From the NCBI GenBank assembly GCA_049511215.1, contig JBEKYG010000001.1, positions 1 through 41,200 of the forward strand: a stretch of DNA of 41,200 nt, read 5' to 3'. Made by a program: the position numbers and the translations under genes. Numbering within the stretch: position 1 is the stretch's first letter; each line of letters starts with the position of its first letter. Shown here one piece after another: positions 1-20,063 of this stretch. This DNA comes from Acidobacteriota bacterium (GTDB taxonomy: Bacteria; Acidobacteriota; UBA6911). A model generated the notes under the pieces. It was not told where the DNA came from. It was given only the letters and a program-made list of their open reading frames with translations, and did no database searches.

Positions 1-1
1 T

Positions 2-1551: not shown

Positions 1552-1610
1552 CCCGGATTATTCAGGAAATCACCCGATAACTGGATGGCAAGAAAAGACA
1601 AAAGATTAAC

Positions 1611-1691
1611 GCAGAGAGCGCAAAGATAGAATCGAGGTCGCAGAGGAACAGCGTCATCCTCTGCGCCCGCGAGCTACTCCGCGCCCTCTGC
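1611..1691. repeat. Composite palindromic intergenic element between convergent genes (terminator-like)
   Basis: Inner perfect 9-bp stem cgcagagga/tcctctgcg (1639-1647 / 1657-1665). Outer arms gcagagagcgcaaag versus ctccgcgccctctgc are built from CGCA[GA]AG-like units. Confidence 0.6.
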
Positions 1692-1794
1692 TTTAAGGTT
1701 TTGAACTCAAAAAGAGCGATATCACACGATCGCTTCCCACACCCTGTGATTTTCCGGGTCCATCGGGCTTCCTTTGAACTCTGGCCCGCGTTTT

Positions 1795-2193
1795 TCACCA
1801 GAGGGTTGCGACGTGAGGGTAATTGCGCAACGCCTCATCTTTCGTGATGAGGCGTCCCCGGTGATGGCGCACCGTGGCCACGATCACCTGATCGGCCAGA
1901 GAACCGTGGAATGGTCCGGGAAGTTCACAACTCTCTATGAGTATCTCCTGCGTCAACTCGGCCACGAATAGTCCCGGCACTGCGAGCGCGGTGTCGAGCC
2001 AAATCCGGATTGGGCGGTCCAACGCAAGCTGACCTTTCTCGACTTTTTTGGCAACCTCCCAAATTGAGATCGCAGAAATCCAGACTCCTTGCCGCGGCGC
2101 AACAGATGAGATCAGAGCCTCGGCGGAGGAAGACAGCCTCTTGTCTTCGGTAACCCACCAGATCCAGGTGTGAGTGTCAAGGAAGGTCTGCAT
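1795..2193 (-). CDS. vapC: PIN-domain toxin, VapC family
   Basis: Reads MQTFLDTHTWIWW...WEVAKK...ADQVIVATV..., with the PIN acidic residues in the expected order. It overlaps the upstream antitoxin gene. The start could instead be the upstream ATG at 2214. Confidence 0.8.
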   Translation of the reverse strand: MQTFLDTHTWIWWVTEDKRLSSSAEALISSVAPRQGVWISAISIWEVAKKVEKGQLALDRPIRIWLDTALAVPGLFVAELTQEILIESCELPGPFHGSLADQVIVATVRHHRGRLITKDEALRNYPHVATLW

Positions 2194-2401
2194 CCCACTT
2201 TTCTCCGGTCCCAAAAGGGTTCCCGGTTTCCCTCAGAATGCTGCCGGCGAGACTCGCGAAAGCCTTATTTTCGCGATAGGGCACAACTTGAATCACCGGC
2301 CGCCCCCTCTTGGTCACCACCAGGGGAGTCTTAGTCTTGGCGACCGCATCCATGATCTTCAGGCACTGGTCCTTGAACTTGCCGGCGGATATCGTTTTCA
2401 T
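2177..2401 (-). CDS. Phd/YefM-family antitoxin
   Basis: Reads MKTISAGKFKDQCLKIMDAVAKTKTPLVVTKRGRPVIQVVPY..., the typical Phd/YefM N-terminal fold signature. The start at 2401 is preferred because a complete promoter sits inside the longer ORF. Confidence 0.75.
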   Translation of the reverse strand: MKTISAGKFKDQCLKIMDAVAKTKTPLVVTKRGRPVIQVVPYRENKAFASLAGSILRETGNPFGTGEKWDADLP

Positions 2402-2407
2402 GGGATT

Positions 2408-2437
2408 ATTATAGCCATGGCCAAATGGCCATGTCAA
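2408..2437 (-). promoter_or_regulatory. Sigma70-type promoter with an operator palindrome in the spacer; predicts a leaderless phd-vapC mRNA
   Basis: On the minus strand: TTGACA (2437-2432), an 18-nt spacer, TATAAT (2413-2408), 6 nt, then ATG (2401). The spacer contains CATGGCCA-nn-TGGCCATG (2416-2433), with 8-bp inverted arms. Confidence 0.5.
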
Positions 2438-2556
2438 CTGATTGGCGGAAGTCCTACTTTATCCGGATTTGAACTGTATCAGCAATTCCGGGGTTGCATA
2501 ATATGAAGCGCCCAAGCCGGCGAAAGTCGGCGGGATGCTGACTCCTGAATCTGATT

Positions 2557-3237
2557 TTAGGCCGGAGGTTGGAGTTGCCCGTTCTCGAGGCGGCAGCTAC
2601 GGCTGCAGGTTGCCGCTAACCTCTCGTTGTGCGTGACCAATATTGAGGTGAGGCCGTGGCTGGCGTGCAGCGTGTGCAGCAGTTCGCCGATGGCCATTCC
2701 TGTGTGGGCGTCCAGGTTTCCCGTGGGCTCATCCGCCAGCAGGAGCTTGGGCCTCCCCACCAGGGCTCTCGCGATTGCGACCCGCTGCTGCTCCCCGCCC
2801 GAGAGTTCTCCGGGCCGATGATCCACGCGTTCCTCCATCCGGACGTCGGCGAGTGCGTCGCGAGCCTGCTTCTCTGCCTGTGCCCTTTGCTCTCCGCGCA
2901 ACAGAAGCGGCATCATTACGTTTTCGATGGCCGTAAATTCCGGCAGAAGATGATGAAACTGGAAGACAAAGCCCACCGTGCGATTGCGAAAGCGTGACAA
3001 TTCCGGCAGGCCGAGGCCGGTGACCTCGGTCCCATCCATGAGGATTGAACCCTGATCGGGCCGATCCATGCCGCCGAGCAGGTGGAGCAAGGTGCTCTTG
3101 CCGGATCCGGAGACTCCCGTCACTGCCAGCATTTCCCCACTCTTCAGGACCAGGCTTAAATCCACCAGCACATCGATACGCTCGACGCCGGATCGGTACC
3201 CCTTATAGAGGCCGAGCACCGTCAGGAGATCACTCAT
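2557..3237 (-). CDS. lolD: ABC transporter ATP-binding protein, LolD-like
   Basis: Walker A GVSGSGKST, ABC signature LSGGEQQR and Walker B LLLADEPT. It overlaps the upstream LolC/E-type permease gene by 8 nt. The start is taken at MSDLLTV (3237). Confidence 0.8.
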   Translation of the reverse strand: MSDLLTVLGLYKGYRSGVERIDVLVDLSLVLKSGEMLAVTGVSGSGKSTLLHLLGGMDRPDQGSILMDGTEVTGLGLPELSRFRNRTVGFVFQFHHLLPEFTAIENVMMPLLLRGEQRAQAEKQARDALADVRMEERVDHRPGELSGGEQQRVAIARALVGRPKLLLADEPTGNLDAHTGMAIGELLHTLHASHGLTSILVTHNERLAATCSRSCRLENGQLQPPA

Positions 3238-4492
3238 AACGCAGAACCTCCACGGGATCCAGACGCGAGGCGTTGCGCGCCGGATAGAGCGTGGCGACAA
3301 AGCTGATAAGCAAAGCGGTACAGCAAATCAGTACTACATCCCAGACCTTCACATGAAAGGGGACATACGGGATGCTGTACACCTCGGCCTGAAGCTGAAT
3401 CAGCTTGTATCGGTCGAGTATCAAGCTGATACCGACGCCGAGTATGGCGCCCAGGGTAGTGCCTATGAAGCCGATGATCAGCCCCTGGAGCATGAACACC
3501 CACATGATGACCTTTTGTGGCGCACCCATGGCCGTGAGGATCGCGATATCACGCTGTTTCTCCAGAACCATCATAATCAGGGTGGTGACGATATTCAGCG
3601 CGGCGACGAAGACGATCAGGCTGATCGTAAGGAACAATGCGATCTTCTCCAGCTTCAGGGCGGAGAAGAGGGGCTTATTGAGGTCAATCCAGGTCGTGGT
3701 GATAAACCCGGGTCCGGCAGCAGTACGAATAACGTCCGCCACCGATTGAACATCCTCCAGGTTATCGGTTTTGAATTGCAGCACGGAGGCTGAGCCTTCC
3801 GGCAGGGATAATAGCCTGCGAGCCGCATACATGTCCGTATAGATCCAATTGGAGTCGTAATCCCACAAACCCGATTCGAAAATGGCGGCAATGCGAAATG
3901 TCTTCTCCCCTACGGTGAATATCCTTCCGGCCAAAGGTGTCAAGCTCCCCTTCGGGTAGATTACCCGCAATGTATCACCCAGCCTGACTCCGAGCGAATG
4001 AGCCATTTCTTTCCCGATGATGGTTGGCAGGAGGGGGGACGGGTCCCCTGACCCATCATATGCGCCCCCGTCGAATGCATGAGGATTGCCTTCCACGATA
4101 TGGGAGAAGAAATCTGAGATCTCCCGCTCACGCACGGGGTCGATTCCCTTGAGTACTGCGCCCTGATTGTGAGTGGGACTGGCGACAAACACCTGGTTGA
4201 AGATCGCCGGCGCAACCCCGGTTACGTGCGGGACGCGGCCCAGGTTGGCGATCATGCCTTCGTACTTGAGGAGTGGAGCATTGTCCGTGTGCAGGAGGTT
4301 GATATAGGACGTGGCACCCACGATCTTGGTCTGGATGTCCTCCCGGAACCCCGTGGACATGGCCAGGGCGATCACCAGGGCCATCACGCCGGCCGCGATG
4401 CCAAGTACGGAGATCGCGGAGATCACCGATATCATGGTCTGCTTGCGTTTTGCTTTCAGGTATCGGAGCGCAACGAACAGTTCAAATTTCAT
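3230..4492 (-). CDS. LolC/LolE-family lipoprotein-releasing ABC permease (FtsX/MacB-type)
   Basis: 420 aa: N-terminal TM helix, large periplasmic domain and a C-terminal FtsX-like 3-TM bundle. Starts MKFELFVALRYLKAKRKQ, as in LolC/E. Confidence 0.85.
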   Translation of the reverse strand: MKFELFVALRYLKAKRKQTMISVISAISVLGIAAGVMALVIALAMSTGFREDIQTKIVGATSYINLLHTDNAPLLKYEGMIANLGRVPHVTGVAPAIFNQVFVASPTHNQGAVLKGIDPVREREISDFFSHIVEGNPHAFDGGAYDGSGDPSPLLPTIIGKEMAHSLGVRLGDTLRVIYPKGSLTPLAGRIFTVGEKTFRIAAIFESGLWDYDSNWIYTDMYAARRLLSLPEGSASVLQFKTDNLEDVQSVADVIRTAAGPGFITTTWIDLNKPLFSALKLEKIALFLTISLIVFVAALNIVTTLIMMVLEKQRDIAILTAMGAPQKVIMWVFMLQGLIIGFIGTTLGAILGVGISLILDRYKLIQLQAEVYSIPYVPFHVKVWDVVLICCTALLISFVATLYPARNASRLDPVEVLRYE

Positions 4493-4513
4493 TTGCCAGG
4501 CGGAAATTTTTTA

Positions 4514-4589
4514 ACCGCCAAGGCCCCAAGACGCCAAAAGCTTTAATCTTTTATTTCTTGGCGGCTTTGCGGCTTTGCGCCTTGGCGGT
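4514..4589. repeat. Composite palindromic intergenic element downstream of lysS (terminator-like)
   Basis: Perfect 10-bp outer stem accgccaagg/ccttggcggt (4514-4523 / 4580-4589). The arms are tandem GCCAA[GA]-type units (ccaaggccccaagacgccaaaag / cttggcggctttgcggctttgcgccttgg). Confidence 0.65.
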
Positions 4590-4631
4590 AAGTTTTGGTT
4601 GTGGCTATGCTGCCTCATGGGTTTCTTGGTT

Positions 4632-6143
4632 CTATTCTCGGACCTCTCCTCCGGATTCGGGCCGCAATAACGGGAACAGGATGACATCGCGGATAGAACG
4701 GGAGTTGGTCAGGATCATGGTGAGCCGGTCGATCCCGATACCTTCGCCGGCCGTGGGCGGCATGGCATAGCTCAGGGCGCGGATGTAATCCTCGTCCATC
4801 TGATGAGCTTCTTCATCGCCGCGGCCTCGTGCCGCGAGCTGTTCTTCGAAGCGCGCCCGCTGCTCGGCTGGATCGTTCAGCTCGGAGTAACCGTTAGCTA
4901 ACTCCATCCCCGCAATGTAAAGCTCGAATCGCTCCACCGTATCGGGGTCATCGGGCTTGGTCTTGGAGAGTGGCGAGACCTCGGTTGGATAATCAAAGAT
5001 GAAAGTGGGCTGGATAAGGTTGGGCTCGACGACGTGCTCGAAAATGGCAGCCAACATCTTGCCGATCCCAGCGGAAGGCTCGAATTCGGCGCCCAGGGCG
5101 CGCGCAAGTTCACGCAGCCTCTTCTCCGAGCGCAACTCATTTGCCGAGGGCTTTGGGACGGATTCAGGCCAGAAGTGCAGGATCGCGTCCTTCATCGTGA
5201 ACCGCTGCCAGTGATCAAAATCCAGAATGTAGTCCTGGTAGGAGACCTGGCGCGAACCGTTGACCGACTCGGCAATCTTGGTGATCATCTCCTGGGTCAT
5301 GTCCATCAGATCATGGAAGTCGCTGTATGCCTGGTAGAACTCGAGCATGGTAAATTCGGGATTGTGCTGCGTTGAGATCCCTTCATTGCGGAAGATCCGG
5401 CTCATTTCGTATACCCGGGGGATGCCGCCGACGATCAGGCGTTTGAGATGGAGCTCGAGAGCGATGCGCAGATACAGCTCGATATCCAGGGCGTTGTGAT
5501 GAGTTTGGAAAGGGCGGGCCAGGGCGCCGCCGGCAACGGTCTGCAGCACCGGCGTTTCCACCTCCAGATAGCCCACCGCATCGAGGAAGTTGCGGATGCC
5601 CCGAATGATCTTGGCGCGCTTCACAAAGACTTCGCGCACCTCATGGTTGACGATCAGGTCAACATAGCGTTGGCGGTACCTGGTCTCGACATCGGTGAGA
5701 CCGTGCCACTTTTCAGGCAAGGGCAGCAGGTCTTTCGCCAGGTGCTGCAAGGAAGAAGCCAAAACGGTGAGCTCATTCGTGCGCGTGCGAAACAGCGTTC
5801 CCTCCGCCCCTACGATATCGCCAAGGTCGAAGAGCTCGTAAAGAGCGAAAGCTTCCGGCCCAACGCGGTCGCGCCGAACATAGACTTGCAGGCGGTGTTC
5901 GCCGTCGAAAAGGTCCAGGAAACCCGCCTTGCCGTGCGGGCGCAGCGCCATGATGCGGCCGCAAACGCGCACGGGCGATTTGGATCCCTCCAGATCCTGA
6001 GCCGACACGGCGTCGAAGCTGCGATGAATGCCCGACAGGGTATGGCTATAGTCGAATTTGTGGGGGTAGGGATCGTAACCGCGGCGCTTCAATTCTTCCA
6101 ATTTCAGGAGGCGTTGGACCCGTGGGTTGGTTTCGTGCTCCAT
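4632..6143 (-). CDS. lysS: Lysine--tRNA ligase (class II)
   Basis: 503 aa with an N-terminal OB anticodon-binding region and class II motifs (e.g. FRNEGIS, GGIGIDRL-type C-terminus ..[13 protein letters not shown]). Confidence 0.95.
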
Positions 6144-6565
6144 TACTCCTTCACCCTTTCTTGCGAGAGGTCTTTCTTGATGCTATCGAGGATGCCGTTC
6201 ACGAATTGCGCCGACTCGTTGGTGGAGAATTTCTTGGCAATCTCCAGGGCCTCGTTGATCACCACGGTGTCTGGCGTTTTGGCGTCCGAGGTTAATTCGA
6301 AAACCGCCAGGCGCAGAACATTGCGGTCGACCGCGGCCATCCGGCTCAGGCGCCAGTTCTTGGTGTGGCCTTGGATGAGCCGATCGATTTCCTTCAGGCG
6401 GTTGAGCGTCCCCCTGAACAGGTCGTTGGCAAATTCGCGCACCTTCTCGGGCTGCTCGTTCATGTCCCAGAAAGTCTCCAGGATCGTGTCGAGGGCATGC
6501 TTACCCACGTCATGTTCGTAGAGCATTTGAAGTGCGCATTCGCGTGCGGTCCTTCTAAGTCCCAT
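6143..6565 (-). CDS. nusB: Transcription antitermination factor NusB
   Basis: 140 aa, [20 protein letters not shown]...[13 protein letters not shown]...FVNGILD. Its stop overlaps the lysS start (TAATG). Confidence 0.9.
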
Positions 6566-6623
6566 TTTTGATGATGCGGTCCAAGGATGTGGTAAACAGG
6601 GATGCGCTGGTGCGTTCGCGGCT

Positions 6624-7088
6624 CTATAACTGTTTCAAAACCTGAACCATTTCTATCGCCGAAAGGGCGGCGTCAAACCCTCGGTTCCCTGACTTAAGGC
6701 CTGCCCGATCAATTGCCTGTTCCAGGGTGTTGCACGTAAGGATACCATAGATCACCGGGATTCCGGATTCCAGGCCGATGTTCCCGATTCCCTTGGTCAC
6801 GGCCGAGGAGAGGTACTCAAAATGCGGGGTCTCCCCTTGCAGCAACGCACCCAGACAAATGACGGCGTCATAATTGCGCGAGAGCGCCAGCTTTTTGGCT
6901 GCCAGGACAATTTCGAAAGCGCCGGGTACCCAACACGTGGTGATATCGTCCGCCACGGCGCCGTGCCGCTCCAGAGCGTCGATCGCGCCGTTTAAGAGAC
7001 GATCGCTGATAAATGAATTGAATCGGCTGATGACGATCGCGAATCGACTTCCGGTCGCATCCAGTTTCCCTTGGATAATCCTGGACAT
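6624..7088 (-). CDS. ribH: 6,7-dimethyl-8-ribityllumazine synthase
   Basis: Reads MSRIIQGKLDATGSRFAIVISRFN...VPGAFE...GVIYGILT, the lumazine synthase signature. GGAGG lies 5 nt upstream of the ATG at 7088. Confidence 0.9.
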   Translation of the reverse strand: MSRIIQGKLDATGSRFAIVISRFNSFISDRLLNGAIDALERHGAVADDITTCWVPGAFEIVLAAKKLALSRNYDAVICLGALLQGETPHFEYLSSAVTKGIGNIGLESGIPVIYGILTCNTLEQAIDRAGLKSGNRGFDAALSAIEMVQVLKQL

Positions 7089-7166
7089 ATTGCCTCCGCT
7101 GAGGTCATACATTCTGCAGGAGATACCCCGGAAAAACAACTGCTAAAAGCTCGCCGCGAACTCGAA

Positions 7167-7306
7167 GGGGCCACGCGACTGGGGCGCTGGGGAGCAGGGG
7201 AGCGGGCGGGGAAAACTCAATTTAGGTTCCCTTGCCCTTCTCTGGGCCGCCAGAGCTCCTCTGCCCCCCTGCTCCCGTGGCCCCCCTGCTCCCTAGCTCC
7301 CGTGGA
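7167..7306. repeat. Composite G-rich palindromic element (GGGAGCAGGGG-type arms)
   Basis: The left arm ggggccacg...ggggagcaggggagcgggcgggg pairs with the right arm cctctgcccccctgctcccgtggcccccctgctccc. The stem is imperfect, with a loop of about 50 nt. Confidence 0.5.
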
Positions 7307-7639
7307 GCTGATGGAAGAGCAAAGTGAAGAAGTCGCGCGGGTGCGGCCGCTGGGGAAGACCGGCTTGCCGAGGCGGCGCGCGAGGTCGTCCGGCGACCAG
7401 TCATCGGCGAAAACCCCCTCGACCTGGGAAACGGACTCGTTCGGAATAATGACGAAATCACCCAGCCGGCGATTGGCGAGGGCACTGGCAAAGTCCTGCC
7501 CGGCAAGCAGTCCCGCCACCGTAATGCTCTTTCCCATGAACCGATTCTCCACCTCAACTACTTCGAGACCGGATCCGAGTTTCCGGTTGAACTGCTCGAT
7601 GCAATCCCGCAGGAACGGATAAAACAGCTTTCCAGATCT
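7217..7639 (-). pseudogene. 3' fragment of a DUF512 (radical-SAM-associated) protein gene, truncated by the Y1-transposase element
   Basis: Reads ..LFYPFLRDCIEQFNRKLGSGLEVVEVENRFMGKSITVAGLLAGQDF...FVIIPNESV.., which matches the DUF512 C-terminal region only. The apparent N-terminus MRRSRRDKYYVPRS is read out of the element terminus (7640-7675). Confidence 0.55.
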
Positions 7640-7822
7640 GGGGACGTAATACTTATCTCTGCGCGATCGACGCACTGCTGCAAGTCGGATTCCTGCGGTC
7701 CAAGCGGGACCGTCCTTGCCGCTACCCCTCGAGAAGAAGTTGATCCTTCAAGAAAGAGTCGCTCATTCGCACCTTTGGGCAGTTAGTAAAAGTGAAGTGT
7801 TTCGGGAGGACCCATAGCCCGC

Positions 7823-7855
7823 ATGGCGCGCGTTGTAGTCCCCGGCATTCCACAC
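7823..7855 (+). pseudogene. 5' stub of the Y1 transposase gene (MARVVVPGIPH...)
   Basis: Aligns with the first codons of the copy-2 transposase. Homology stops after ccacac at 7855. Confidence 0.6.
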
Positions 7856-8008
7856 GCTTGTTTTTCCTATGCGTTAGATTCTTCGCACCGCGGAGAATCT
7901 GAACTTATCTTGCCTCTCAAATATCTAAATCACTAGTTGGATACTTCCGAAAACTAACACGCGAAGTGACAATGCCTCAAAGACTCCGGCATTAGTGGAG
8001 CACAGGAT

Positions 8009-10303
8009 ATGACCATGAAGATGCATTGGTGTTTTGTTCTCTGCCTGGCACTGACCGTACCTGCGGGCGCGCAGACCATCACCCGGCAGAATCTGGCTCA
8101 AATCCTCGGTTTCGAGAACGGGACGCCTGGCACTTTTCCGGCGGGGTGGGGCGGCAGCACGGATGGCACGATCGTCACTGACGGCCAGGTTGCTCACAGC
8201 GGGAAGTACTCCGCTCGAATTGAGCGCAACGCCTCCAGTTCCGGGACCTTCTCCTTTCTCCAGGTCTGGATTCCCATCGATTTCTCAGGCCAAACGATTC
8301 AATGGAGAGGGTGGGTTAAGACCAATAACGTCAGTGGCTATGCGGCCATCTATTTCGGCGAATATGATGATAACTATAGCAATTTCGGGTTCGCTACCAC
8401 GCAGGGGTTGAGGGTACAGGGAACCAGGGATTGGACGGAGTACTCCATCACGCTGCCCGTTTATGGCCAAGCCACACAATTACAGATGGGCTTTCTTCTT
8501 GGCGGAACGGGCATGGCGTGGGCCGACGATCTGCAACTGCTGGTTGATGGTCGGGCGGTTGGGGACCACGAGTTTGATGGCGGTTCCGGCATCACAATCA
8601 CCAGCCTCTCGGATATCCAGATCCAGAACCTGGCGAAGCTGGCAAAAGTATGGGGATTTCTCAAGTACCACCACCCCGCGGTCACAAGCGGGCAGCACCA
8701 GTGGGACTATGACCTGTTTCGCGTTCTTCCCGCGGTGCTCGCCGCGGCCGATGGCCCGACCGCAAACCAGGCCATTGCCGACTGGATCACCGCCCGCCTC
8801 GGCACCGTCACCCCATGCACCGTCTGCGCTACGCTCGACACGAGCGACTTGTACATGGACACGAATCTTGACTGGCTCTCCGACGGGTCGCTTCTCGGCT
8901 CCAGCTTAAGCCAGACTCTGCAATCGATCTATGTCAACCGGACTCCGGCGGCCAGGACCTTTTTTGTTTCGATGTATCCGGGTGCAGGCAGTCCGCTGTT
9001 TCAAAACGAGTCCTACTATGCAGGCATCAGCCTGCCGGATTCGGGTTATCAGTTGCTCGGCCTCTTTCGCGCCTGGAACATGGTTCAATATTTCTATCCG
9101 AATCGCGATGTGATGGCGGACGATCCGGCCAGTTCACCGAACTACTGGGACGACGTTCTGCAACAATCGATTCCGGGCATCGCATTGGCGCAAAGCAGCC
9201 TGGAGTATCAACAGGCGCTGCTGCAGTTCACCGCCATGATTAACGATACGCACTCCGGCATTTCGAACTTTACTGGCGCGCGCCCGCCGATTGAACCTTG
9301 CCAACTGCCCGTGCAGGTCCGTTTCGTGCAAGGCAGCCCGCTGGTGGTGGGCTATCTCTCGACGGACGGTGCCAGCTCCGGCCTGCAAATTGGAGACGTG
9401 ATCGAGCAGTTGGATGGTACCGCTATGGCTGACCTGGTCACGCAATGGACGCCGTACTATACGGACTCCAATGAGGCCGCGCGCCTGAGGGATATTGGAA
9501 GAGCCATGACGCAGGGAGCTTGCGGTCCGGCCTCCGTGTCAGTATGGCGCGGACGCAAACGACTTCGCCTGACAGCCGACCGGGTGCTGAGCAGTACGCT
9601 CAACCTCAGTTCTAACCGGGAGCACGACCTGCCCGGGAGCACTTTCCAGATGCTCTCGGACGACATCGCCTACCTCAAATTGAGTTCCGTGCAGGCGGCG
9701 CAATCGGCCAATTACATTGAGTCGGCGGCAGGAACCAAGGGACTGATCATCGACATCCGCAACTATCCATCGGAATTCGTCGTGTTTACCTTGGGCGATC
9801 TCCTGGTCTCTGAGCCGGTGAATTTCGTGCAGCTTACCTATGGTGACGTGACCAATCCGGGGGCATTCCATTGGTTGTCGCCGCCAGTGGGGCTGACGCC
9901 GGCACAGCCGCACTACGCGGGCAAGGTGGTGATTCTGGTGGACGAGATTACACAGAGCCAGGCCGAATACACGACGATGGCGTTTCGAACGGCGCCCGGG
10001 GCGATCGTCGTCGGGAGCACAACGGCAGGCGCCGACGGAAATGTCGCGACGGTCCCGCTGCCTGGGGGCTTCTGGTTCTATTTCAGCGGCATTGGGGTCT
10101 TCTATCCCGACCATCGTCCGACCCAACGCGTGGGGATCGTTCCGGATATCGTAGTGACGCCGACCATTGAAGGGATTCGAGCGGGACAAGACGAGGTGCT
10201 CAACGAGGCGGTTCGCCTGATTGAGGGGAAAATACCGAGAAAACCGATTGTCACTCCGGCACAGCCAGCCGCTGCTCGCCCTGTTCGGCGTCAACTGCAT
10301 TGA
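8009..10303 (+). CDS. Secreted S41-family peptidase (tail-specific-protease-like) with an N-terminal carbohydrate-binding-like module and a PDZ-like segment
   Basis: 764 aa with signal peptide MKMHWCFVLCLALTVPAGAQ. PDZ-like GLQIGDVIEQLDG. S41 blocks GLIIDIRNYP, VVILVDEITQSQAEYTTMAF, VGSTTAGADGNV and GIVPDIVV. Confidence 0.8.
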   Translation: MTMKMHWCFVLCLALTVPAGAQTITRQNLAQILGFENGTPGTFPAGWGGSTDGTIVTDGQVAHSGKYSARIERNASSSGTFSFLQVWIPIDFSGQTIQWRGWVKTNNVSGYAAIYFGEYDDNYSNFGFATTQGLRVQGTRDWTEYSITLPVYGQATQLQMGFLLGGTGMAWADDLQLLVDGRAVGDHEFDGGSGITITSLSDIQIQNLAKLAKVWGFLKYHHPAVTSGQHQWDYDLFRVLPAVLAAADGPTANQAIADWITARLGTVTPCTVCATLDTSDLYMDTNLDWLSDGSLLGSSLSQTLQSIYVNRTPAARTFFVSMYPGAGSPLFQNESYYAGISLPDSGYQLLGLFRAWNMVQYFYPNRDVMADDPASSPNYWDDVLQQSIPGIALAQSSLEYQQALLQFTAMINDTHSGISNFTGARPPIEPCQLPVQVRFVQGSPLVVGYLSTDGASSGLQIGDVIEQLDGTAMADLVTQWTPYYTDSNEAARLRDIGRAMTQGACGPASVSVWRGRKRLRLTADRVLSSTLNLSSNREHDLPGSTFQMLSDDIAYLKLSSVQAAQSANYIESAAGTKGLIIDIRNYPSEFVVFTLGDLLVSEPVNFVQLTYGDVTNPGAFHWLSPPVGLTPAQPHYAGKVVILVDEITQSQAEYTTMAFRTAPGAIVVGSTTAGADGNVATVPLPGGFWFYFSGIGVFYPDHRPTQRVGIVPDIVVTPTIEGIRAGQDEVLNEAVRLIEGKIPRKPIVTPAQPAAARPVRRQLH

Positions 10304-10307
10304 CCGA

Positions 10308-10754
10308 CGCAGAGCGATCGGCGAGGCCCATCGGCTTTACACTCGAGGCATCGACTTCAGGGTGGGGAAGCGCGGCTACCTGTTCCAGGGACGCCCCTTT
10401 TCCTGCCCCCTGGATGAGGACCATTATTTCGCGGCACTCCGTTATGTTGAGCGCAATCCTAATCGAGCAGGAATGGCAACGCAGCCATGGGATTATTTGT
10501 GGTCTGGAGCGCGATTCCACGTGGGGCTCGTGGGAACCGATCTATTGATCGACGTCGATGTCTTGGAGCACTGGCGCATCGACCCGGAGCAATGGCGACA
10601 GTTGTTGCAGACGGATCCGCACGAAATGCTGACTCTAAGGAAGAAAACCAGGACCGGTAGGCCATGTGGAAGCAGAGCATTCGTCGATCGGCTCCAGGAG
10701 ATTAGCGGAAGGGCTCTCCATCCCCAGCGCCCTGGACCATGCCCACGGGCTTGA
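10308..10754 (+). pseudogene. 3' portion of the Y1 transposase gene (copy 1)
   Basis: Reads ..RRAIGEAHRLYTRGIDFRVGKRGYLFQGRPFSCPLDEDHYFAALRYVERNPNRAGM.., collinear with the copy-2 C-terminal frame. It lacks the HUH-containing N-terminal third. Confidence 0.75.
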
Positions 10755-10882
10755 TGTTCGGGGATACTCGCCTCCCCACTTCAAAGAATCCCGACGGGCA
10801 GTTCGATACTACTGTCTCAGCGGATTCTGTGGCCGACCCCGCAATCCAAGATGAGTATTATGTCCCCGGATTTCCGCGACTC

Positions 10883-10912
10883 AAAAAAAACGGGGAGCCG
10901 GAAAGCTCCCCG
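10883..10912 (-). terminator. Rho-independent terminator of the TonB-dependent receptor gene
   Basis: The minus strand reads CGGGGAGC-TTTCCG-GCTCCCCG followed by TTTTTTTT, starting 27 nt after the stop at 10939. Confidence 0.8.
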
Positions 10913-10938
10913 TTTGGTGCTCTGGAAAGCGGAGTTGG

Positions 10939-13900
10939 TTAGAAGGTGATTCTCGCGGTGAGCTGGACCACGCGCACCGAAGAATCGAAGCCCAGGAACG
11001 AACCATAAGGGCTGACCGGTGCGTTCACCGTCCCTCCAATCAAACCGAACGTCGAGTCCCCAAGCCCATTGTCCGGGAGACTGAAATTCGGGTGGTTGAA
11101 CACGTTGAATGCCTGGACCCCGATTCCAAGGTTCATGCCTTCCCGGAAGGGGAGCTTGAAGTTGCGATGCAGGTTCATATCCACGTTAAAGTAATGCGGC
11201 CCGCGGAACTGGTTGCGCGTCTGCGGCGACCAGGCCGTGAAGTTGTTGAAGCTGGCGGCGCCGCTGTTCAGGAACACGTTCGGATTCAGGCAGGGCGTTC
11301 CCGTGCCGTCAAGGTTCTGAATATTGCCACTGCCACAAGAGGTTTGAGCCGCGCCCCCGCCTATCGGCGTAGCCAGAATCACTCCGCCGCCGTTGCCGAG
11401 CCCGCCGTTCCAGTTCCCATCCTCAATCGAGAAAGGCAGGCCGCTGCGCCAGTACCACTTGCCCGACCAACTCCATCCGTTCAGAAGCTGCCGGAGGAAC
11501 GGGTTGCTCATCTGGGGCGTCGGGGTCACGACCCAGTCGGCATTGAAGTTGTGCCGGATGTCGTAATCCGAGTTGCCGTAGTTGTTGGCACGAAGGCTGG
11601 TGGGGTTGATCTGCGAGAGCGTCTGGGAGTCGCCATAGGTGAACACACCACCGTTGGAGGCCTCGTCCAGGTTGTGCGACCAAGTGTAGTTCAAGTGAGT
11701 CGAGAACCAACGCGAGAAGCGTTTCGTCAGGGTCACAGTCATCCCGTTGTAATCCGAGATCGCACCGAACTGGACCAGGCTCACCTGCCCATAGTTCGGC
11801 ACGGGGGCACTCGCCGGGATGCCCTTGACGCCGGGGTATATGCCATATAAGTCGAAGGCATTCGCCCAGGAATTGGTATAGGGCAGGTGGATGCCGTGAT
11901 TGCCAACGTAGTTGACAGTCAGCGCCATCGAGTTGCTCAACTGCCGCTGCACTTGCAGGTTCCACTCTTGCCATCGCGGAGAGGCGATGTTGCCCTGGAG
12001 CGACGTGAATGCGGGAGCTGCGAACACGGCCCCCAGCACCTTCAAACTTGCCGAGATCTGGCTATACGTCTGACTCAGGCTGAAGGAATTCGCGGAAGCC
12101 TGCCAGATCGCAGCTCCGCCATTCGGGCCCGGATCGAAAGGCAACACGCCCGCCGACGGGCGGACACGAATGGCAACCGACGAGGGGGGATTCGCGAGCA
12201 AATCATCCACGAGCCCGGCGGCGGGGTTGTCATAGAATAGGCCGAAGCCGCCTCCGACCACCCACTTATTGCTCTTCCCCGGAGACCAGTTAAAGCCAAA
12301 GCGCGGCGCGTAGTCGAGCCCGTCCGTGCTCGGGTAGGCCTGGTGCAGGCCGGTGGCGATATCGGAGCTATAGGGCACGTTGCCGGGCGCTGCGCTGGTT
12401 ACGCTCGGCAGACCCTGCCAGGGGCCGTTGAAGTCCGCGAAACAATTGAATTGGCACACCGGGTTCGAATTGTGCTCAACGCGCAGGGTCAGGGTGAGCT
12501 TCAGGTTCGAGCGGACGTTCCACTCATCCTGCGCATAAACCCCCATGCCCCACATCGCTATCGGCACGTCGCTCGCCGCGTTCAGCGTCTTTCGGTACTG
12601 GTAGGCGAGGCCGTTGGCGAAATTTTGCAAGCCAGCGGTGACGTAGCCAAAGTAGACGCCAGGATAGTTGAAGAAGAAATTTTGATCGCTCACGTCGTAG
12701 CGGCGGAAATTTTCACCAAACTTCATGTTGTGCTTTCCGCGGATCAGCGCGAAGTCGTCGATGAACTGATACTGCGTGATATCGCGTCCCTGCGGAAAAT
12801 CGTACTGCGCGCCAAAGCTGGTAAAGGGAACCGCGCCCGAAGTGACGATGCCGACGGGGAACGTGTTGCTGGCCAGCGGCTCACTCTGCGAAAAGATGGC
12901 CACGTAATGGCTCGCCGACCCTTTAAATTCATTGGTCATCGACGGTCCGAAGATGTGCGTCTCGGTTAACTGATTGTCGTACTCGGGCTGGTTCGAGAGC
13001 GCATTGAAGTTCGGGTTGATGAGAGAGATTGTCGTCGGCTGCAGGCCGTGATCGAGCTTGTAGCGATAAAAAACAACGTCCTTATCGCCGATCTTCTGGT
13101 CCACGCGGCCGGCCAGGATCCACTCGGATCCCAGGGCGCCCGCGCTCGTGTCGAACCTCGCTGCGCAGTTCTGCGTGTTGGGGTTAAAGCCCGACAAAAC
13201 GATGGAGTTGCAGTAGCTGCTGTTGGCGATCGGAACCGCACTGGCGGCGTTCGGCGCACCCGACCATATCCCGAACATCTTCTGATAGAGCGAAGCCTCC
13301 GCAGGCTGTTTGGCCTGGACGTTGGCCAGAACCGCATTGGCGAACGCCGTGGTCGGAATGGTCACCGCACCTTCGACCGGTAAAACGAAGCGGAGGCCTT
13401 AGAAATCCACAAAGAAGAACGTCTTGTCCTTGCGGATGGGGCCGCCAAACGAAGTCGCCCACTGGTTCGCATTGGAAAATGGCTGCGGAGTGCCAGACTG
13501 ATTCAAGAAAAAGTCGTTCGAGTTCATCGCCCGGCCGTTCCACCAATACTCCGCATTGCCGTGGTACTGGTTGGTTCCGGACTTCGTCGCGTAAACGACC
13601 TGCGCGCCCGAAAGTTGCCCGTATTGGCCCGCGTAGGGATTGGCAACGACGGTGGTTTCCTGCATCTCGTTCTGGCCGATGCCGAGGTTGCTGGCGCCCG
13701 AATTGTTGATATTGAAGTACGGGTCCATGAAGTTCTCGCCGTTGATCGTGAACAGGTTCGAGGTCGCCGGCAGGCCATTCAGCGTGAAGTTGCCATAGCC
13801 GCCCGTGTTGTTGACCACGACGCCAGGCACGCTGAAAGCGATGGTAGTGATGTCGCCCCCCGCCGCCGGGAGATTCTGCACCTCCTGCGGCGAGAAGGTC

Positions 13901-14322
13901 GTGTTGATGCTGGACTCCGTATTCAGCAGAGGCGCGACCCCCGAAACCACAACCGTCTCGTTTGTCGCGCCAACTTCCAGGGTCAGATTAGCGGTCACAA
14001 TCTGCCCGACCGCCACCTCGACCGGACGCTCCGCCTTCCGAAATCCGGTGTACTCCACGGTTACCGTGTAGTGGCCCGGCTTCAGTAGCCGGAAGCGGTA
14101 TTCGCCGGCCGCGCCGGTCGCCGCGTTCTGAACTGCGCCCGTGTCCAGATTCTTCAAGGCGACGCTTGCATTTGGGATGACGGCGCCGCTGGAGTCGGTG
14201 ACTGTCCCGGCGATGTCGCCAGTCAGCAGCGATTGCGCGAAGGCCGGCTGTGCCACCGAGAGCGCCAGCCCGAGGGTCGCCGCGGTAAAGACTAGAAAAA
14301 GCTTACTGATATGGCCTTGCAT
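10939..14322 (-). pseudogene. TonB-dependent receptor (CarboxypepD_reg N-terminus + plug + beta-barrel) interrupted by one in-frame TAA
   Basis: ORFs 13399-14457 and 10939-13365 are in the same frame. The junction reads KTFFFVDF*GLRFVLP, where the intact paralog has FFFVAYEGL. Start MQGHISKLF at 14322 follows AGGAAAGGAG. The C-terminus ends ..VQLTARITF. Confidence 0.85.
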
Positions 14323-14550
14323 CGAAATCTCCTTTCCTGGTCCAAGATATAAGACGTTTACCAGCCACAGAGGGGGTCGTTGTGCGCGGCGCATTCGTTG
14401 CCCATTGCGCACTGTGATGGTCGCGCTTGGAACTACCGCACCGCTCTGATCTTTCACGGTGCCGCCGACTCAGCCGGTCTCCTGCTGCGCCACCAAACTG
14501 CCGGGCAGCAGTAACACCACGGCCAGTGCCACCAAACCACGGTGCGTCAT
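14323..14550 (-). pseudogene. Degenerate N-terminal remnant of another TonB-dependent receptor
   Basis: The minus strand from ATG 14550 reads MTHRGLVALAVVLLLPGSLVAQQETG*VGGTVKDQSGAVVPSATITVRNG.. This is a signal peptide plus the start of a CarboxypepD_reg domain, with an in-frame TGA at 14470-14472. The similarity then decays. Confidence 0.4.
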
Positions 14551-14961
14551 TAAGGCTATCCTTTTAGCCAAATCCATTTGGATGTCCTCCTTATTAGGAT
14601 TCGTTAAACAGTCATTTCGAGGATTGAATCGAATCCGCGCAGGGTTCGATCGGAAAACCCTGCAAAAACGTTTTTCCCCCCATTTACGCCTCTAATTAAG
14701 GCAAGAACAAGACCAGTAACAAGAAAGGGATGAAGATTTGTCTCATAAACCTTTTCTTTTTAAGAGAATACAGGGTATTCTACACTATAGGCGTTGCGCG
14801 GGAATCGGTCGTGCTCTTCTGTTATTCATATTTCTAGATTAGATTTCCAACTATTTGGATTCCCGGGATTCCTTTACTGCAATCTGCGATTCAGACACTG
14901 CAAAAGAAGTAGAGGCCACGAATAACACAAGCCAGCATAGCCGCAACCAAAATCTACTTAA

Positions 14962-15020
14962 GGGACTCAGAGGTTCTAAGAAATCAATTTAGATTCTTTG
15001 AGTCTTAGGGCCTTTGAGTC
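14962..15020. repeat. Imperfect composite hairpin (GACTCA[GA]AGG / TCTAAGA units)
   Basis: The arm gggactcagaggttctaagaaatc pairs with gattctttgagtcttagggcctttgagtc; one arm carries an extra tandem unit. Confidence 0.4.
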
Positions 15021-15178
15021 TTTGAGGCAAAAATCCTTGCCAACTGAGCAAAGATTGGCAAGTAAATAGTACGAATAACTCAAGAGGGCTATTCAATTTA
15101 CTCCACAAGCCCCTATATATTGTGGTTATGCTTTTTACGACCTCGCACAATTTTGGCAAGAAAAGCTGAACCGCAAAG

Positions 15179-15237
15179 ACCACAAAGACCTCGAAGAAAA
15201 AATATCCTGGAGATTATATCTTCGAGGTCTTTGTGGT
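15179..15237. repeat. Perfect 19-bp stem hairpin built from tandem CAAAGAC-like units
   Basis: accacaaagacctcgaaga (15179-15197) and tcttcgaggtctttgtggt (15219-15237) are exact reverse complements with a 21-nt loop. It is preceded by one more unit, ccgcaaagac. Confidence 0.75.
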
Positions 15238-15423
15238 TCATAGTCCTCCATACCCCGAATCACTAGTAGAACCGGTTTCTGCTATCACTGCGCGGGCACT
15301 CTTATCGTATACTCATCAGCCGGATCTGTTTTAGGCCGGCTCGATCGTGTGGTTATGAATTCGCAACACATCCTGGCGGCCTCATCCAGATGAAGAAACT
15401 TCCGGATGCCCTTGGCCCCCGAC

Positions 15424-15520
15424 CATCGGGATCGGAATCGGGATCGCAGTCGCTATTGGTTCTTAACCGCGAACCACCACCGTTGTCGGTTTCAAGAGCC
15501 GATAGCGATGCCGATTCCGA
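15424..15520. repeat. GATCGG-type hairpin element, copy A
   Basis: The left arm catcgggatcggaatcgggatcgcagtcgctattgg pairs with the right arm ccgatagcgatgccgattccga. The left arm is nearly identical to the reverse complement of 17705-17740. Confidence 0.6.
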
Positions 15521-16251
15521 AAATGCTTGCGGCCCTCGCCGCTGCCTTGCATAGTTGCTAGAGTCGTTGGACACATCGTTTTGAAGACACACAAATTCAC
15601 AAGCTCGCTTCGCGGAGAGACAGCATGAGAGTACTTCTTCTGACCGGACCTGGCGGTGATGCTCAAGGATGGGATGACCTGGCTGTAACGAAATGTGTCG
15701 GCGAGGTTGCGGAGGCCTCGGGACACGCTGCCCGTATCGCCGATGTCGAAGCCGAGGCTGATTTTTTCGGGTTGCGGGGTGTCGCGGCAGCCGGCCCGAA
15801 GTTGACATAAGACCCGCATATCAGAAGCTGCCTGCCTTCGGAAGGGAGGTAGCATCGGGCCGATTTTGCAGCTTATTTCACCTACCGCTGCCGGTGGCCG
15901 CAACCAAGTATGGCGGAGATTGTGACGCCGGGCGCTTTCAGCTTTCAGCTTCCTCCGAAATTTCTTTGCAAAATGCAAAGAAGTCACATATAGAGAATCT
16001 ATCCGTCACCGTGCGGCATTCAAGGCGGCAGTTTGACGACGAGGAGCTGAACGAAGGCTGACGATTATCGTTCCCACGAATGATCATGCCCAGGTGATTT
16101 GGGCGCAACCGCGAAACCGGATAAAGCCCCCCTTTCGGCATCACCGGTGAGGTATTGTCCGAGTACGCCACGATTCGTTCAGAATCCTAGGACATCGCTT
16201 GGGCCTGCTCTGATGGCAAGTCCATTGTCCCCATGGCGGGAGAAGCGTAAG

Positions 16252-17514
16252 ATGCACAAGTTAGAGATCCAAATTCCAGCTCAATCCGATGGAGAAGTAT
16301 CATCTGCAACTTCTCGGCAGGCCATTGGAGGCCACTTGAAGAGCACTCTTCTGTATTGTGCATTTATCCTGACGGCGTTCGCCGCCGCCGGGTCAGTGGT
16401 TTTTCATGCAAATGCTCTGGCGACGCTGACCAGTCAGTCTCAGGGGAAATCGTTCAATGCCGGCGGCCTGCGTTCGTTTGAAATTGTTCCGTTGGAGACC
16501 GTTTCGGAAACATCCGCCAACGCCAGCATTGGCGACCTCAATGGCGATGGGAACCTCGATATTGTGTTGGCCAAGGGCCGTCATTGGGAGGTGCCCAGCC
16601 GGATTTTTTTCGGTGACGGCAAAGGAAACTTCACGCCGGGGCCACCTCTTCCGAGTAAAGCCACCAAGACCTACTCGGCGTCCTTGGTCGATATGACCAA
16701 GAGCGGCCATCTGGATATGGTTCTGAGCAATGATGAGCCGGAACCGAAGTTGGTCCTACTCAACGATGGCAAAGGTAATTACACCATTGGCGGGACTTAT
16801 GGCGACCCAAAGTGGTCAACCAGAAACGCAGCCGTTGGGGACTTGAACGGTGACGGCTATCCGGATATCGCTGTCGCGAATCGCGGCATGACGAGCTATG
16901 TCTGCTTCAATGATGGCAAACTCCATTTCCATTGCCGTCCGCTGCCGGACTCGCCGAGCTCGGCGACGGTGGCCATTGCCGATATTGACGGCGATGGCGC
17001 GAACGATGTGATTTATGCCTGCCGGGATGAATGCCAAAGCGCTGTCTATTTCAACGACGGCAAGGGAAACTTCACTCGCAAAGAGCCCTGGGGACCGCCG
17101 AAATCATCCACACGCGCGATGGCGGTCGCCGACTTTGACGGTGATGGCCATCTGGACATCGCCGCGTGCCACGAGAAGCTGGGCTGCTTTGTGTACCTCA
17201 ATGACGGCAAAGGCCACTTTGGCAGGGGTATTCAATTCCAGACGCCCGAGGCGTTGCCCTATTCCATGACCGCCGCGGATCTGAATCGCGACGGTCGGCC
17301 TGAGATTATTGTCGGCTATGTCAAAGCTCCGGGAGTAATCTATTTCAACGACGGCACGGGGAAAAAGTATCAGCCAGAGCCATTCGGCGACGGCAAGGGA
17401 GCGATCTATGGCATGGCGGCAGCCGATCTGGATGGCGACGGATGGCCCGATGTCGTCGTGGCGCGATCCGACGCGCCCTGCTTTGTGATGTTTAACCGCC
17501 CACCCAAGAAATGA
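16252..17514 (+). CDS. FG-GAP/VCBS-repeat beta-propeller protein, membrane-anchored or secreted
   Basis: Seven Dx[DN]xDGxxD-type blades: GDLNGDGNLDIV, VDMTKSGHLDMV, GDLNGDGYPDIA, ADIDGDGANDVI, ADFDGDGHLDIA, ADLNRDGRPEII and ADLDGDGWPDVV. N-terminal hydrophobic helix TLLYCAFILTAFAAAGSVVF. The start is uncertain (16252, 16213 or 16099). Confidence 0.8.
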   Translation: MHKLEIQIPAQSDGEVSSATSRQAIGGHLKSTLLYCAFILTAFAAAGSVVFHANALATLTSQSQGKSFNAGGLRSFEIVPLETVSETSANASIGDLNGDGNLDIVLAKGRHWEVPSRIFFGDGKGNFTPGPPLPSKATKTYSASLVDMTKSGHLDMVLSNDEPEPKLVLLNDGKGNYTIGGTYGDPKWSTRNAAVGDLNGDGYPDIAVANRGMTSYVCFNDGKLHFHCRPLPDSPSSATVAIADIDGDGANDVIYACRDECQSAVYFNDGKGNFTRKEPWGPPKSSTRAMAVADFDGDGHLDIAACHEKLGCFVYLNDGKGHFGRGIQFQTPEALPYSMTAADLNRDGRPEIIVGYVKAPGVIYFNDGTGKKYQPEPFGDGKGAIYGMAAADLDGDGWPDVVVARSDAPCFVMFNRPPKK

Positions 17515-17646: not shown

Positions 17647-17740
17647 GATCATCGGTATCGCTATCGCAGTCGCAATCGCAATCGGCTTTTTCAGGCTGGC
17701 AAGACCGATTGCGACTGCGATCCCGATACCGATCCCGATC
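17647..17740. repeat. GATCGG-type hairpin element, copy B, one base from the transposase-element terminus
   Basis: The arm gatcatcggtatcgctatcgcagtcgcaatcgcaatcgg pairs with ccgattgcgactgcgatcccgataccgatcccgatc, giving a stem of about 33 bp with a 6-nt tandem indel. Confidence 0.7.
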
Positions 17741-17741
17741 T

Positions 17742-18690
17742 GGGGACATAATACTTATCTCTGCGCGATCGGCGCACCGCTGCAAGTCGGATTCCTGCGG
17801 TCCAAGCGGGACCGTCCTTGCCGCTATCCCTCGAAAAGAAGTTGATCCTTCAAGAAAGAGTCGCTCATTCGCGCCTTTGGGCAGTCAGTAAGAGTGAAGT
17901 GTTTCGGGAGGACCCATGGCCCGCAGGGCGCGCGTTGTAGTCCCCGGTATCCCACACCACATCACCCAACGCGGCGTCCGCGCCATGAGGATCTTTTTCA
18001 GCCTGGAAGACCGTCTCGAGTATCTGTGGCTTCTGCGTTATCATGACGGGATTCACGGTTTGCATTTCGCATCTTACACGCTCATGGACAATCATGTCTT
18101 GTGGTTATTCCCGAACGGGAAGATAGCCTGCGCAGAGCGATCGGCGAGGCCCAGCGGCTTTACACTCGAGGCATCAACTTCAGGGTGGGGAAACGAGGCT
18201 ACCTGTTCCAGGGACGCCCCTTTTCCTGCCCGCTGGATGAGGACCATTATTTCGCGGCATTCCGTTATGTTGAGCGCAATCCTACTCGAGCAGGGATGGC
18301 AGCGCAGCCATGGGATTATTTGTGGTCTGGAGCGCGATTCCACGTGGGGCTCGTGGGAATCGATCCATTGATCGACGTCGATGTCTTGGAGCACTGGCGC
18401 GGCGACCCGGAGCAATGGCGACAGTTGTTGCAGACGGATCCGCCCGAAATGCTGACTCTCCAGAAGAAAACCAGGACCGGCCGGCCATGTGGAAGCAGAG
18501 CATTTGTCGATCGGCTCCAGGAGATTAGCGGAAGGGTTCTCCTTCCCCGCCGCCCTGGACCACGCCCACGGGCTTGATGTTCGGAGATACCCGCCTCCCC
18601 ACTTCAAAGCATCCCAGCGGGCAGCTCGATACTGCTGTCTCAAGGGATTCTGTGGCCGACCCCGCAATCCAAGATGAGTATTATGTCCCC
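17742..18690 (+). mobile_element. Y1/HUH (IS200/RAYT-like) transposase element, copy 2 (about 0.95 kb)
   Basis: Termini ggggacataatacttatct (17742-17760) and agatgagtattatgtcccc (18672-18690) are 18/19 inverted repeats. They enclose a single transposase gene. Confidence 0.75.
17916..18577 (+). pseudogene. Y1 (HUH) tyrosine transposase, frameshifted inside the HUH motif
   Basis: Frame 1 reads MARRARVVVPGIPHHITQRG...YTLMDNHV, then runs off. Frame 3 continues (L)VVIPEREDSLRRAIGEAQRLY...FAAFRYVERNPTRAG. The canonical sequence would be NHVHLVVIP, implying a 1- or 4-nt deletion near 18093-18100. Confidence 0.8.
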
Positions 18691-18962
18691 GGATTTTTGC
18701 CAGCAGTGCGGTTCACCTTCTGAGAGAAGAAGAGATACTCGATCTAACCCGGAATTTCTAGAGGGAATCACTTGCCTTCTAACCGGAATTTTGTCAATAA
18801 TTTAGCCTTTAGACTTCTTGTCCTGTCCATGGCCGCGAATTCCATTCTGTTGCGATCTGAGGTGGGGCGGATGCGGGATATTATGTGGAAGGGCAATTGC
18901 CGTACGCATGATCTGGTGTTGCCGATCCCGATCAGCAAATCGTATTCTTCAAGTAGGGAATC

Positions 18963-20034: not shown

Positions 20035-20063
20035 GGGCAGGATAGAACCATAGATGAATGGTT

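Follow-up and report, generated by a model that had tools for sequence, protein, structure and literature searches.

In the 41.2-kb stretch of DNA analyzed here (the window), which is an entire contig of a metagenome-assembled genome (MAG) and the one contig on which our inspection of the source genome is based, an S41 peptidase gene lies between the two halves of a small transposable element, bordered on the left by a truncated DUF512/radical-SAM gene and on the right by an outer-membrane barrel gene (Table 1). The source is a soil Acidobacteriota genome. The left and right parts of this element copy (copy 1, 7631-7855 and 10308-10873) align without gaps in BLASTN to 17733-17957 and 18131-18696 of a second copy in the window (copy 2), with 212 of 225 (94.2%) and 532 of 566 (94.0%) positions identical, and are separated by 2,452 bp that carry the peptidase gene. 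An earlier reading, made from the sequence alone, had described the element ends, the 5' leader, the first codons and the last two-thirds of the transposase gene as collinear with copy 2; this description holds at 94% identity, and the BLASTN boundaries at 7855 and 10308 confirm its claim that the 2452-bp S41 segment stands in place of the HUH-coding part.

Table 1. Features of the composite and of the second element copy, in window coordinates
Feature	Position	Strand	Description
DUF512/radical-SAM gene fragment	7217..7630	-	3' third; the cut coincides exactly with the element's left end
Left element part	7631..7855	+	Inverted repeat, ~180-nt leader and first 14 transposase codons; from a three-way alignment with L005
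Left terminal inverted repeat	7636..7658	+	ATCTGGGGACGTAATACTTATCT; one A-to-G change relative to the other copies
S41 upstream region	7856..8008	+	AT-rich, 44% GC; 13-pair hairpin at 7874-7902
S41 peptidase gene	8009..10303	+	764 aa; Pfam Peptidase_S41 (PF03572); signal-peptide-like N-terminal segment
Tail region	10253..10307	+	55 nt; encodes a 16-residue tail and the stop at 10301-10303
Transposase 3' two-thirds	10308..10754	+	Codons 74-221 and stop, with the catalytic Tyr motif RYVERNP; from a protein alignment
Right terminal inverted repeat	10849..10871	-	Homology between element copies stops at 10873
Hairpin resembling an intrinsic terminator	10888..10915	-	Belongs to the outer-membrane barrel gene downstream; 15 nt from the element end
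Element copy 2	17733..18696	+	Full length apart from a 4-nt gap; 95% identity to intact L005:54-1017

Two details of that reading require adjustment. It put the replaced stretch at about 173 bp, which is accurate relative to copy 2; measured against intact L005 the loss is 177 bp, equivalent to transposase codons 15-73 with the HUH motif included, and the smaller figure results from copy 2's own 4-nt deletion. It also counted 11 retained codons, which is correct from the ATG at 7823, while the count from the ancestral start, whose ATG has mutated to ATA (7814-7816), is 14. The transposase remnant on the right is an open frame that lacks a start codon of its own. The inner junctions of copy 1 carry neither direct nor inverted repeats, and an Rfam search returned no match inside the composite.

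The S41 peptidase gene and its borders

The inserted gene has the hallmarks of an ordinary Acidobacteriota S41 peptidase of the C-terminal processing/tricorn-core type, with a full-length match to a secreted-looking family of about 750 aa. The Peptidase_S41 domain scores 57.3 bits against a curated cut-off of 24 over residues 552-716, and the protein keeps every column that is invariant across 13 aligned sequences. Among 1,735 homologues the nearest shares 88% amino acid identity. At the nucleotide level, comparison with one homologous locus (L003) gives 90.7% identity and a dN/dS of 0.31, with homology covering 7992-10252 only. Codon usage is host-like, with a relative synonymous codon usage (RSCU) correlation of r 0.91 with the other window genes, and GC and GC3 match as well; the compositional comparison that had been suggested as a check shows the S41 gene in agreement with the host genes. 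The peptidase is probably still functional and secreted, with expression driven by the region upstream of its gene.

What distinguishes the window gene from its Acidobacteriota counterparts, apart from its location inside a dead mobile element, is the 16-residue C-terminal tail. In five of the seven nearest homologues aligned, the protein ends in KPIVR-stop or a close variant; the window gene lacks this last codon and stop and has the tail in their place. The stop codon lies 4 nt upstream of the point where element homology resumes, exactly as first described. The original description of a complete 764-aa gene is right as regards the open reading frame (8009-10303), while the 3' end departs from that of native homologues after 10252. 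The tail region derives either from filler or from the 3' flank of the donor itself. Because the C-termini of S41 homologues vary, the 55 nt may be the native 3' end of the donor gene; in that case the gene is complete, and a stop 4 nt from the junction is tidier than a random break would leave. The region upstream of the gene is presumably the donor's intergenic region. Short-word BLASTN with 7856-8008 and 10253-10307 against the window and all 44 S41-homologue loci yielded only chance-level matches of 10-15 nt.

The element and its second copy

The element is a unit of about 964 bp with terminal inverted repeats of 23-30 bp (23 nt in the window and in L005, 30 nt in L053) and a single gene, which encodes a 221-aa Y1/HUH transposase of the RAYT-like type. 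A 21-nt terminal motif occurs exactly four times in the window, at 7638-7658 (+), 10849-10869 (-), 17740-17760 (+) and 18672-18692 (-), against none expected in shuffled sequence. The same repeat core flanks a transposase only 70% identical in L053, and conservation across such a distance indicates that the repeats are probably functional sites. The motif was absent from all 49 other loci searched (0/49), and an exact-pattern scan of 185,579 species genomes, among which the source genome is not included, found it in three stretches. A few solo or doublet copies exist away from element ends; one is an ends-only doublet of about 95 bp in another Acidobacteriota MAG (L008). The element ends fold no better than shuffled sequences (z -1.4 to +1.0). 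In the three copies compared, the left flank always ends in GAT and the right end is GGAT; no target duplication is visible, but this GAT may belong to the repeat.

Copy 2 has lost 4 nt between 18096 and 18097, within the HUH motif NHVH, and this loss shifts the transposase frame and makes the copy a pseudogene. At the deletion site, the alignment shows MDNHVHLVVIPE for P0121, an intact 221-aa protein that has both the HUH residues H60-V-H62 (NHVH) and the catalytic tyrosine Y119 (RYVERNP). Intact elements with intact transposases, 94-95% identical, occur in other samples. The 5-6% divergence among the three element copies makes recent activity less likely. An exact-protein look-up of P0125 gave no match.

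Distribution and origin of the composite

The composite occurs at one locus only (nusB-ribH-DUF512), its flanks being alike in all four assemblies that contain it. An ENA contig (L057) matches window positions 1-18359 with two mismatches and spans the whole composite with both outer flanks, a JGI contig (L001) matches 1-10597, again with two mismatches, and a Logan contig (L002) is identical over 7741-10403. The search for further termini-S41-termini arrangements that had been proposed thus led back to this single locus. As to the S41 gene in a non-element context, the other arrangement that had been asked after, its homologues do occur in this way: in none of the 44 loci that carry them is there a terminal motif, a piece of the transposase gene or any other element DNA.

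The left flank is interrupted where the element begins. The DUF512 fragment covers positions 103-199 of 202 in the Pfam DUF512 profile and 332-420 of 433 in TIGR03279; the 5' two-thirds of the gene is absent from the window, and two related loci (L006 and L007) carry the gene at full length. Homology to the syntenic relative L006 reaches window position 7627 and then stops, which places a synteny break at the left end of the element, and L006 has other genes at the position of the composite. Nothing matches the right-hand flank; the DUF512 fragment drew only nine homologues, with L006 giving the left-hand synteny. Apart from unrelated paralogue matches, the S41-homologue loci have no genes in common with the window neighbors, and an exact-protein look-up of the 808-aa outer-membrane ORF gave no match.

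We consider it likely that 7631-10873 is a dead element copy in which a chromosomal S41 fragment was captured by illegitimate recombination inside the transposase gene. A single such event, either fragment capture during double-strand-break repair or a template switch, would have put 2.45 kb of unremarkable Acidobacteriota chromosomal DNA in the place of the 177 bp of the transposase gene. This segment would comprise some 150 bp of intergenic DNA, an S41 gene lacking the final codon and stop of its nearest homologues, and 55 bp that are either filler or flanking DNA of the donor. The outcome would be a functional-looking protease gene with an inert element around it, and a separate rearrangement, by deletion beside the element or by recombination between two copies, may have removed the DUF512 5' two-thirds. 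The composite in this form looks like a one-off rearrangement scar and not like a new kind of cargo-carrying transposon. Weighing against this explanation are the fact that no donor locus of the S41 segment was found, the tidy position of the stop should the tail be native, and the kept terminal repeats, with one substitution on the left, together with the 94-95% identical intact transposases of other samples, which leave mobilization in trans physically conceivable.

It is improbable that two copies in the same orientation once flanked a resident S41 gene, with two later deletions trimming the upstream copy on its 3' side and the downstream copy on its 5' side. The position of the composite at a synteny break, with outer flanks that do not belong together, is in keeping with such a history, and by our own estimate two independent breakpoints would fall less than ~175 bp apart in a 964-bp element with a chance of about 1/3. 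However, two insertions and at least two deletions would be required, together with an account of the 55-nt tail; the left and right halves stand at the same distance from copy 2 (94.2% and 94.0% identity); and no relative has an S41 gene beside DUF512 or outer-membrane barrel genes. The sequence-only reading had itself named a native S41 gene between two separate insertions as the finding that would overturn its proposal. This was not seen, given the other genes in L006 and the S41 loci that share no neighbors with the window.

Its central suggestion, that the S41 gene is a passenger that could be mobilized in trans, fares poorly. A non-autonomous derivative of this kind, whose two terminal repeats would be acted on by the transposase of another copy, is in our view very unlikely, even though both repeats are present in near-consensus form, the repeats are conserved across 70%-identical transposases, intact transposase genes exist in related samples, and the ends-only doublet in L008 hints at internally deleted derivatives. 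Confinement of the composite to one locus, the absence of element DNA from the other S41 loci (0/44) and the 5-6% separation of the three element copies all speak against passenger transport. No working transposase is present within the window, where the sole other copy is frameshifted. With a truncated gene on its left and unrelated DNA on its right, copy 1 does not sit at a simple insertion site, and the repeat-less junctions and the altered 3' end of the S41 gene likewise count against mobilization.

We give scant credence to the broader proposition that the Y1 family moves internally replaced derivatives, the S41 composite being the first carrier of a housekeeping-type-enzyme passenger in the IS200/RAYT superfamily. 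In a weaker variant, the truncated transposase could be retained for a non-catalytic role; both window copies have lost exactly the HUH motif and kept an open C-terminal two-thirds. The dN/dS of the copy 1 remnant (10308..10754) against L005 is 0.37, within a range of 0.28-0.55 for the transposase remnants that rests on too few substitutions to judge selection on the C-terminal part.

An assembly chimera that arose at the repeated element was rejected as having a negligible chance, since L057, L001 and L002 reproduce the window junctions: the L001 and L057 contigs do end inside the element, with copy-2-like terminal bases in L001, so that the repeat does disturb assembly, but both inner junctions lie at non-repeat positions and are exact in four assemblies from different pipelines, albeit with sampling sites that are possibly common to them.

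To our knowledge, the ferrying of ordinary genes is not part of the known biology of single-strand HUH elements. Were the composite mobile, such elements could do so; the evidence points the other way. The locus instead offers a clean case of a chromosomal gene inserted in a transposase gene at a rearrangement hotspot, and its main use is as a caution against reading a gene between two transposon ends as cargo.

Relation to known transposon families

The pattern of ends kept, transposase lost and a foreign gene inside is shared with transporter IS elements and with MITEs and PATEs. These classes are defined by the same unit recurring at several sites, whereas the composite is known from one locus only.

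The element itself resembles members of the IS200/IS605 family such as IS608 and ISDra2 in its small size of about 1 kb and, to judge by the HUH and Tyr motifs of the intact relative P0121, apparently in a single-domain Y1 HUH transposase. Against the Pfam Y1_Tnp cut-off of 23, P0121 falls below at 14.4 bits, while the relatives P0138 (32.3) and P0166 (26) lie above. Canonical IS200/IS605 elements have subterminal hairpins, lack terminal inverted repeats and insert 3' of a fixed short target that they do not duplicate, and where they carry an extra gene it is usually tnpB or iscB and not a housekeeping-type enzyme. In contrast, the present element has terminal inverted repeats of 23-30 bp and no significant hairpins at its ends.

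Likeness to the RAYT/TnpA-REP group is indicated by the best curated match, NCBIfam REP_Tyr_transpos (NF047646), which is the sole model matched, although P0121 (35.6 bits) and its relatives (48.7 and 50) all score below the cut-off of 80. Among solved structures, the best match is E. coli TnpA-REP (4ER8), and the gene likewise has a short motif on either side, in inverted orientation. As a rule, RAYTs are present in one copy alongside abundant dispersed REPs (PMC5581495). Here, two copies of the whole 964-bp unit lie within 41 kb, and the motif is rarely seen away from element ends. The more unusual part of the locus is the element family, which unites classical terminal inverted repeats and IS-like copy behavior with a Y1 transposase of the RAYT-like type. 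The family is widespread in Acidobacteriota metagenomes and may deserve a description of its own.

The composite and its S41 segment

The most fitting description of the composite is an IS-like Y1 element copy (copy 1) that is disrupted and inert, its two halves separated by an insert that carries an S41 peptidase gene. BLASTN and the ORF and stop positions bore out the coordinates that the sequence-only reading had given for copy 1, copy 2 and the insert. The S41 stop ends 4 nt upstream of the resumed element homology, and no direct or inverted repeats were found at the composite junctions.

Features of the window and of related loci
Feature	Coordinates	Details
DUF512 / radical-SAM remnant	7217-7630 (-)	last third of gene; Pfam positions 103-199 of 202
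Copy 1, left half	7631-7855	matches 17733-17957, 94.2%, ungapped
Insert	7856-10307	2,452 bp
Hairpin upstream of S41	7874-7902	13 pairs
S41 ORF	8009-10303	764 aa; Peptidase_S41, 57.3 bits (cut-off 24)
Copy 1, right half	10308-10873	matches 18131-18696, 94.0%, ungapped
Outer-membrane gene	10939-14457	1,127 aa; CarboxypepD_reg / OMP_b-brl_4
In-frame TAA	13399-13401 (-)	splits outer-membrane gene
AT-rich stretch	14560-16100	~1.5 kb, apparently non-coding
Palindrome	15179-15237	near-perfect; 29-nt arms
ATCGNN half copy	15425-15460	2.2 kb from hairpin
ATCGNN-type hairpin	17651-17733	28-nt arms, 93% complementary
Copy 2	17733-18696
Toxin and primase genes	19026-21769
Acido-Lenti-1 RNA motif	33906-33951 (-)	Rfam, 51.9 bits (gathering score 37)
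Inverted partner of Acido-Lenti-1	34037-34081
Intact element	L005:54-1017	964 bp
Terminal-repeat doublet	L008:4011-4105	~95 bp; Acidobacteriota MAG JBGQNR010000054.1
Solo terminal motif	L010:4530-4552	23 nt; Planctomycetota MAG JBDREM010000123.1

The S41 protein is one of a large family in Acidobacteriota (1,735 homologues, the nearest at 88%, then 85% and 77%), and nucleotide homology to the nearest native gene, in locus L003, is limited to 7992-10252 (90.7%). The gene has the look of a functional one, native either to this lineage or to one close to it: its GC (0.588; GC3 0.70) and codon usage are host-like (its RSCU correlates at 0.91 with that of the other genes, one of the window's highest values), its dN/dS relative to L003 is 0.31, and it keeps every column invariant across 13 aligned sequences. 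Read by eye, its N-terminus (MTMKMHWCFVLCLALTVPAGA/QT) resembles a Sec signal peptide. Of the seven nearest homologues aligned, five have ...KPIVR-stop or a close variant as their C-terminus, and the window protein reads ...KPIV followed by 16 unrelated residues and a stop. C-termini are somewhat variable among more distant homologues, so the last 55 bp of the insert could be either filler or 3' flanking sequence of the donor. Neither these 55 bp nor the 153 bp upstream of the gene (44% GC) matched anything in the window or the fetched loci.

The element family

Both copies end in inverted copies of a 21-23-nt motif, ATCYGGGGACRTAATACTYATCT, for which a scan of the window at up to three mismatches gave four matches, only at element ends (none in shuffles). 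The element ends fold no better as hairpins than shuffled sequence. Away from element ends the motif is rare: it was absent from all 49 other loci, and three stretches were found in the genome collection, two of them with a single motif and one, in L008, with a doublet. In the doublet, a third, degenerate copy of the motif separates a left-type from a right-type repeat; this is a MITE-like derivative of the family that consists of ends only. The solo motif in L010, on a contig assigned to another phylum, could reflect horizontal spread or a binning error.

The reconstructed copy-2 protein has 1,487 homologues, typically of 217-237 aa. The best of these is P0121 (94%, 221 aa), an intact transposase from another sample, encoded in the L005 element, which has the same ends as copy 2 and 95% identity to it; locus L058 is near-identical. 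In alignment A2 the HUH motif reads NHVH, at residues 59-62, with RYVERNP as the tyrosine motif. Relatives score 32.3 and 26 bits against Pfam Y1_Tnp (cut-off 23) and P0121 14.4 bits; the sole NCBIfam match, REP_Tyr_transpos, reaches 35-50 bits where its cut-off is 80, and the best solved structure by sequence is E. coli TnpA-REP 4ER8 (E 0.15). A transposase only 70% identical (P0123, locus L053) is bordered by 30-nt inverted repeats with the common core GATCCGGGGACATAATACTTGTCT, indicating that terminal repeats are conserved across the family. The family thus joins a RAYT-like Y1 enzyme to terminal inverted repeats of the classical kind and to copies of the whole unit, as in an IS, and does not fit canonical IS200/IS605 anatomy. 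Nor does it match RAYTs, which are described as typically single-copy and accompanied by abundant REPs (PMC5581495). This unusual combination is a more notable by-product than the composite itself.

Relative to the L005 element, copy 1 has lost 177 bp (codons 15-73, HUH included) and its ancestral ATG is now ATA, while copy 2 is frameshifted by a 4-nt deletion within NHVH, between 18096 and 18097. Neither window copy can yield an active enzyme. The HUH motif is thus damaged in both, and the C-terminal ~148 codons are open in each; NCBI annotates the 158-aa copy-2 remnant as 'transposase'. The three element copies differ pairwise by 5-6% (dS 0.09-0.12; dN/dS 0.28-0.55, from few substitutions) and are not recent duplicates.

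Flanks, history and mobility

The window is an entire 41.2-kb contig of an Acidobacteriota MAG. A truncated DUF512 gene adjoins the composite on the left; the window lacks the remainder of this gene as well as the genes upstream of it. In the syntenic relative L006 the order is ABC - FtsX - aaRS - nusB - ribH - full DUF512 - pgsA-like - PatA_N and so on; its synteny with window 2548-7627 ends exactly at the element end, and it has no matches to the window right of the composite, where 15 nt separate the element end from the terminator of a gene for an outer-membrane barrel. Given the truncated left gene and the unmatched right flank, copy 1 is not in a simple insertion site, and we infer that the site must have undergone either a deletion beside the element or recombination of two copies.

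In the simplest history, an element copy would have occupied this position, one illegitimate event would have swapped 177 bp of its transposase gene for a captured chromosomal fragment with S41, and a flank rearrangement, before or after capture, would have truncated the DUF512 gene. An unlikely alternative is that two insertions and two deletions took place around the S41 gene. Among 44 loci with S41 homologues (L003, L004 and 42 fetched from metagenomes), not one has neighbours in common with the window, leaving the scenario of an S41 gene native at this position unsupported.

The sequence-only reading correctly placed the S41 segment inside element halves; its further suggestion, a passenger gene mobilisable in trans, is improbable. 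The composite was found at one locus only, its junctions are repeat-free, and all 44 S41 loci lack transposase coding sequence, element DNA and the terminal motif; there is thus no sign that the unit ever moved. An assembly chimera is scarcely credible, as three further assemblies, which may share sampling sites, between them reproduce the two inner junctions and the outer flank on either side: L057 (ENA ERZ27250144; window 1-18359, two mismatches), L001 (JGI 3300038425; 1-10597, two mismatches) and L002 (Logan SRR13021855; 7741-10403, exact).

Other features of the contig

The outer-membrane gene is split by a stop codon where the otherwise identical L057 has GAA (Glu), so the TAA is either a nonsense polymorphism between strains or an error of sequencing. 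Upstream of this gene lies the AT-rich stretch, with the palindrome inside it. The hairpin of ATCGNN-type hexamer repeats, which directly adjoins the left end of copy 2 and has a 78%-similar copy at L006:1594-1669, may belong to a family of REP-like repeats and might serve as an insertion target. Copy 2 is closely followed on its right by a gene for a BrnT-type toxin, a small overlapping ORF (possibly the antitoxin) and a primase of DnaG type (zinc finger and Toprim), a setting that suggests that copy 2 lies at the edge of an integrated mobile island. The Acido-Lenti-1 motif sits in a larger inverted-repeat structure, and similar sequence occurs at L006:1768-1922.
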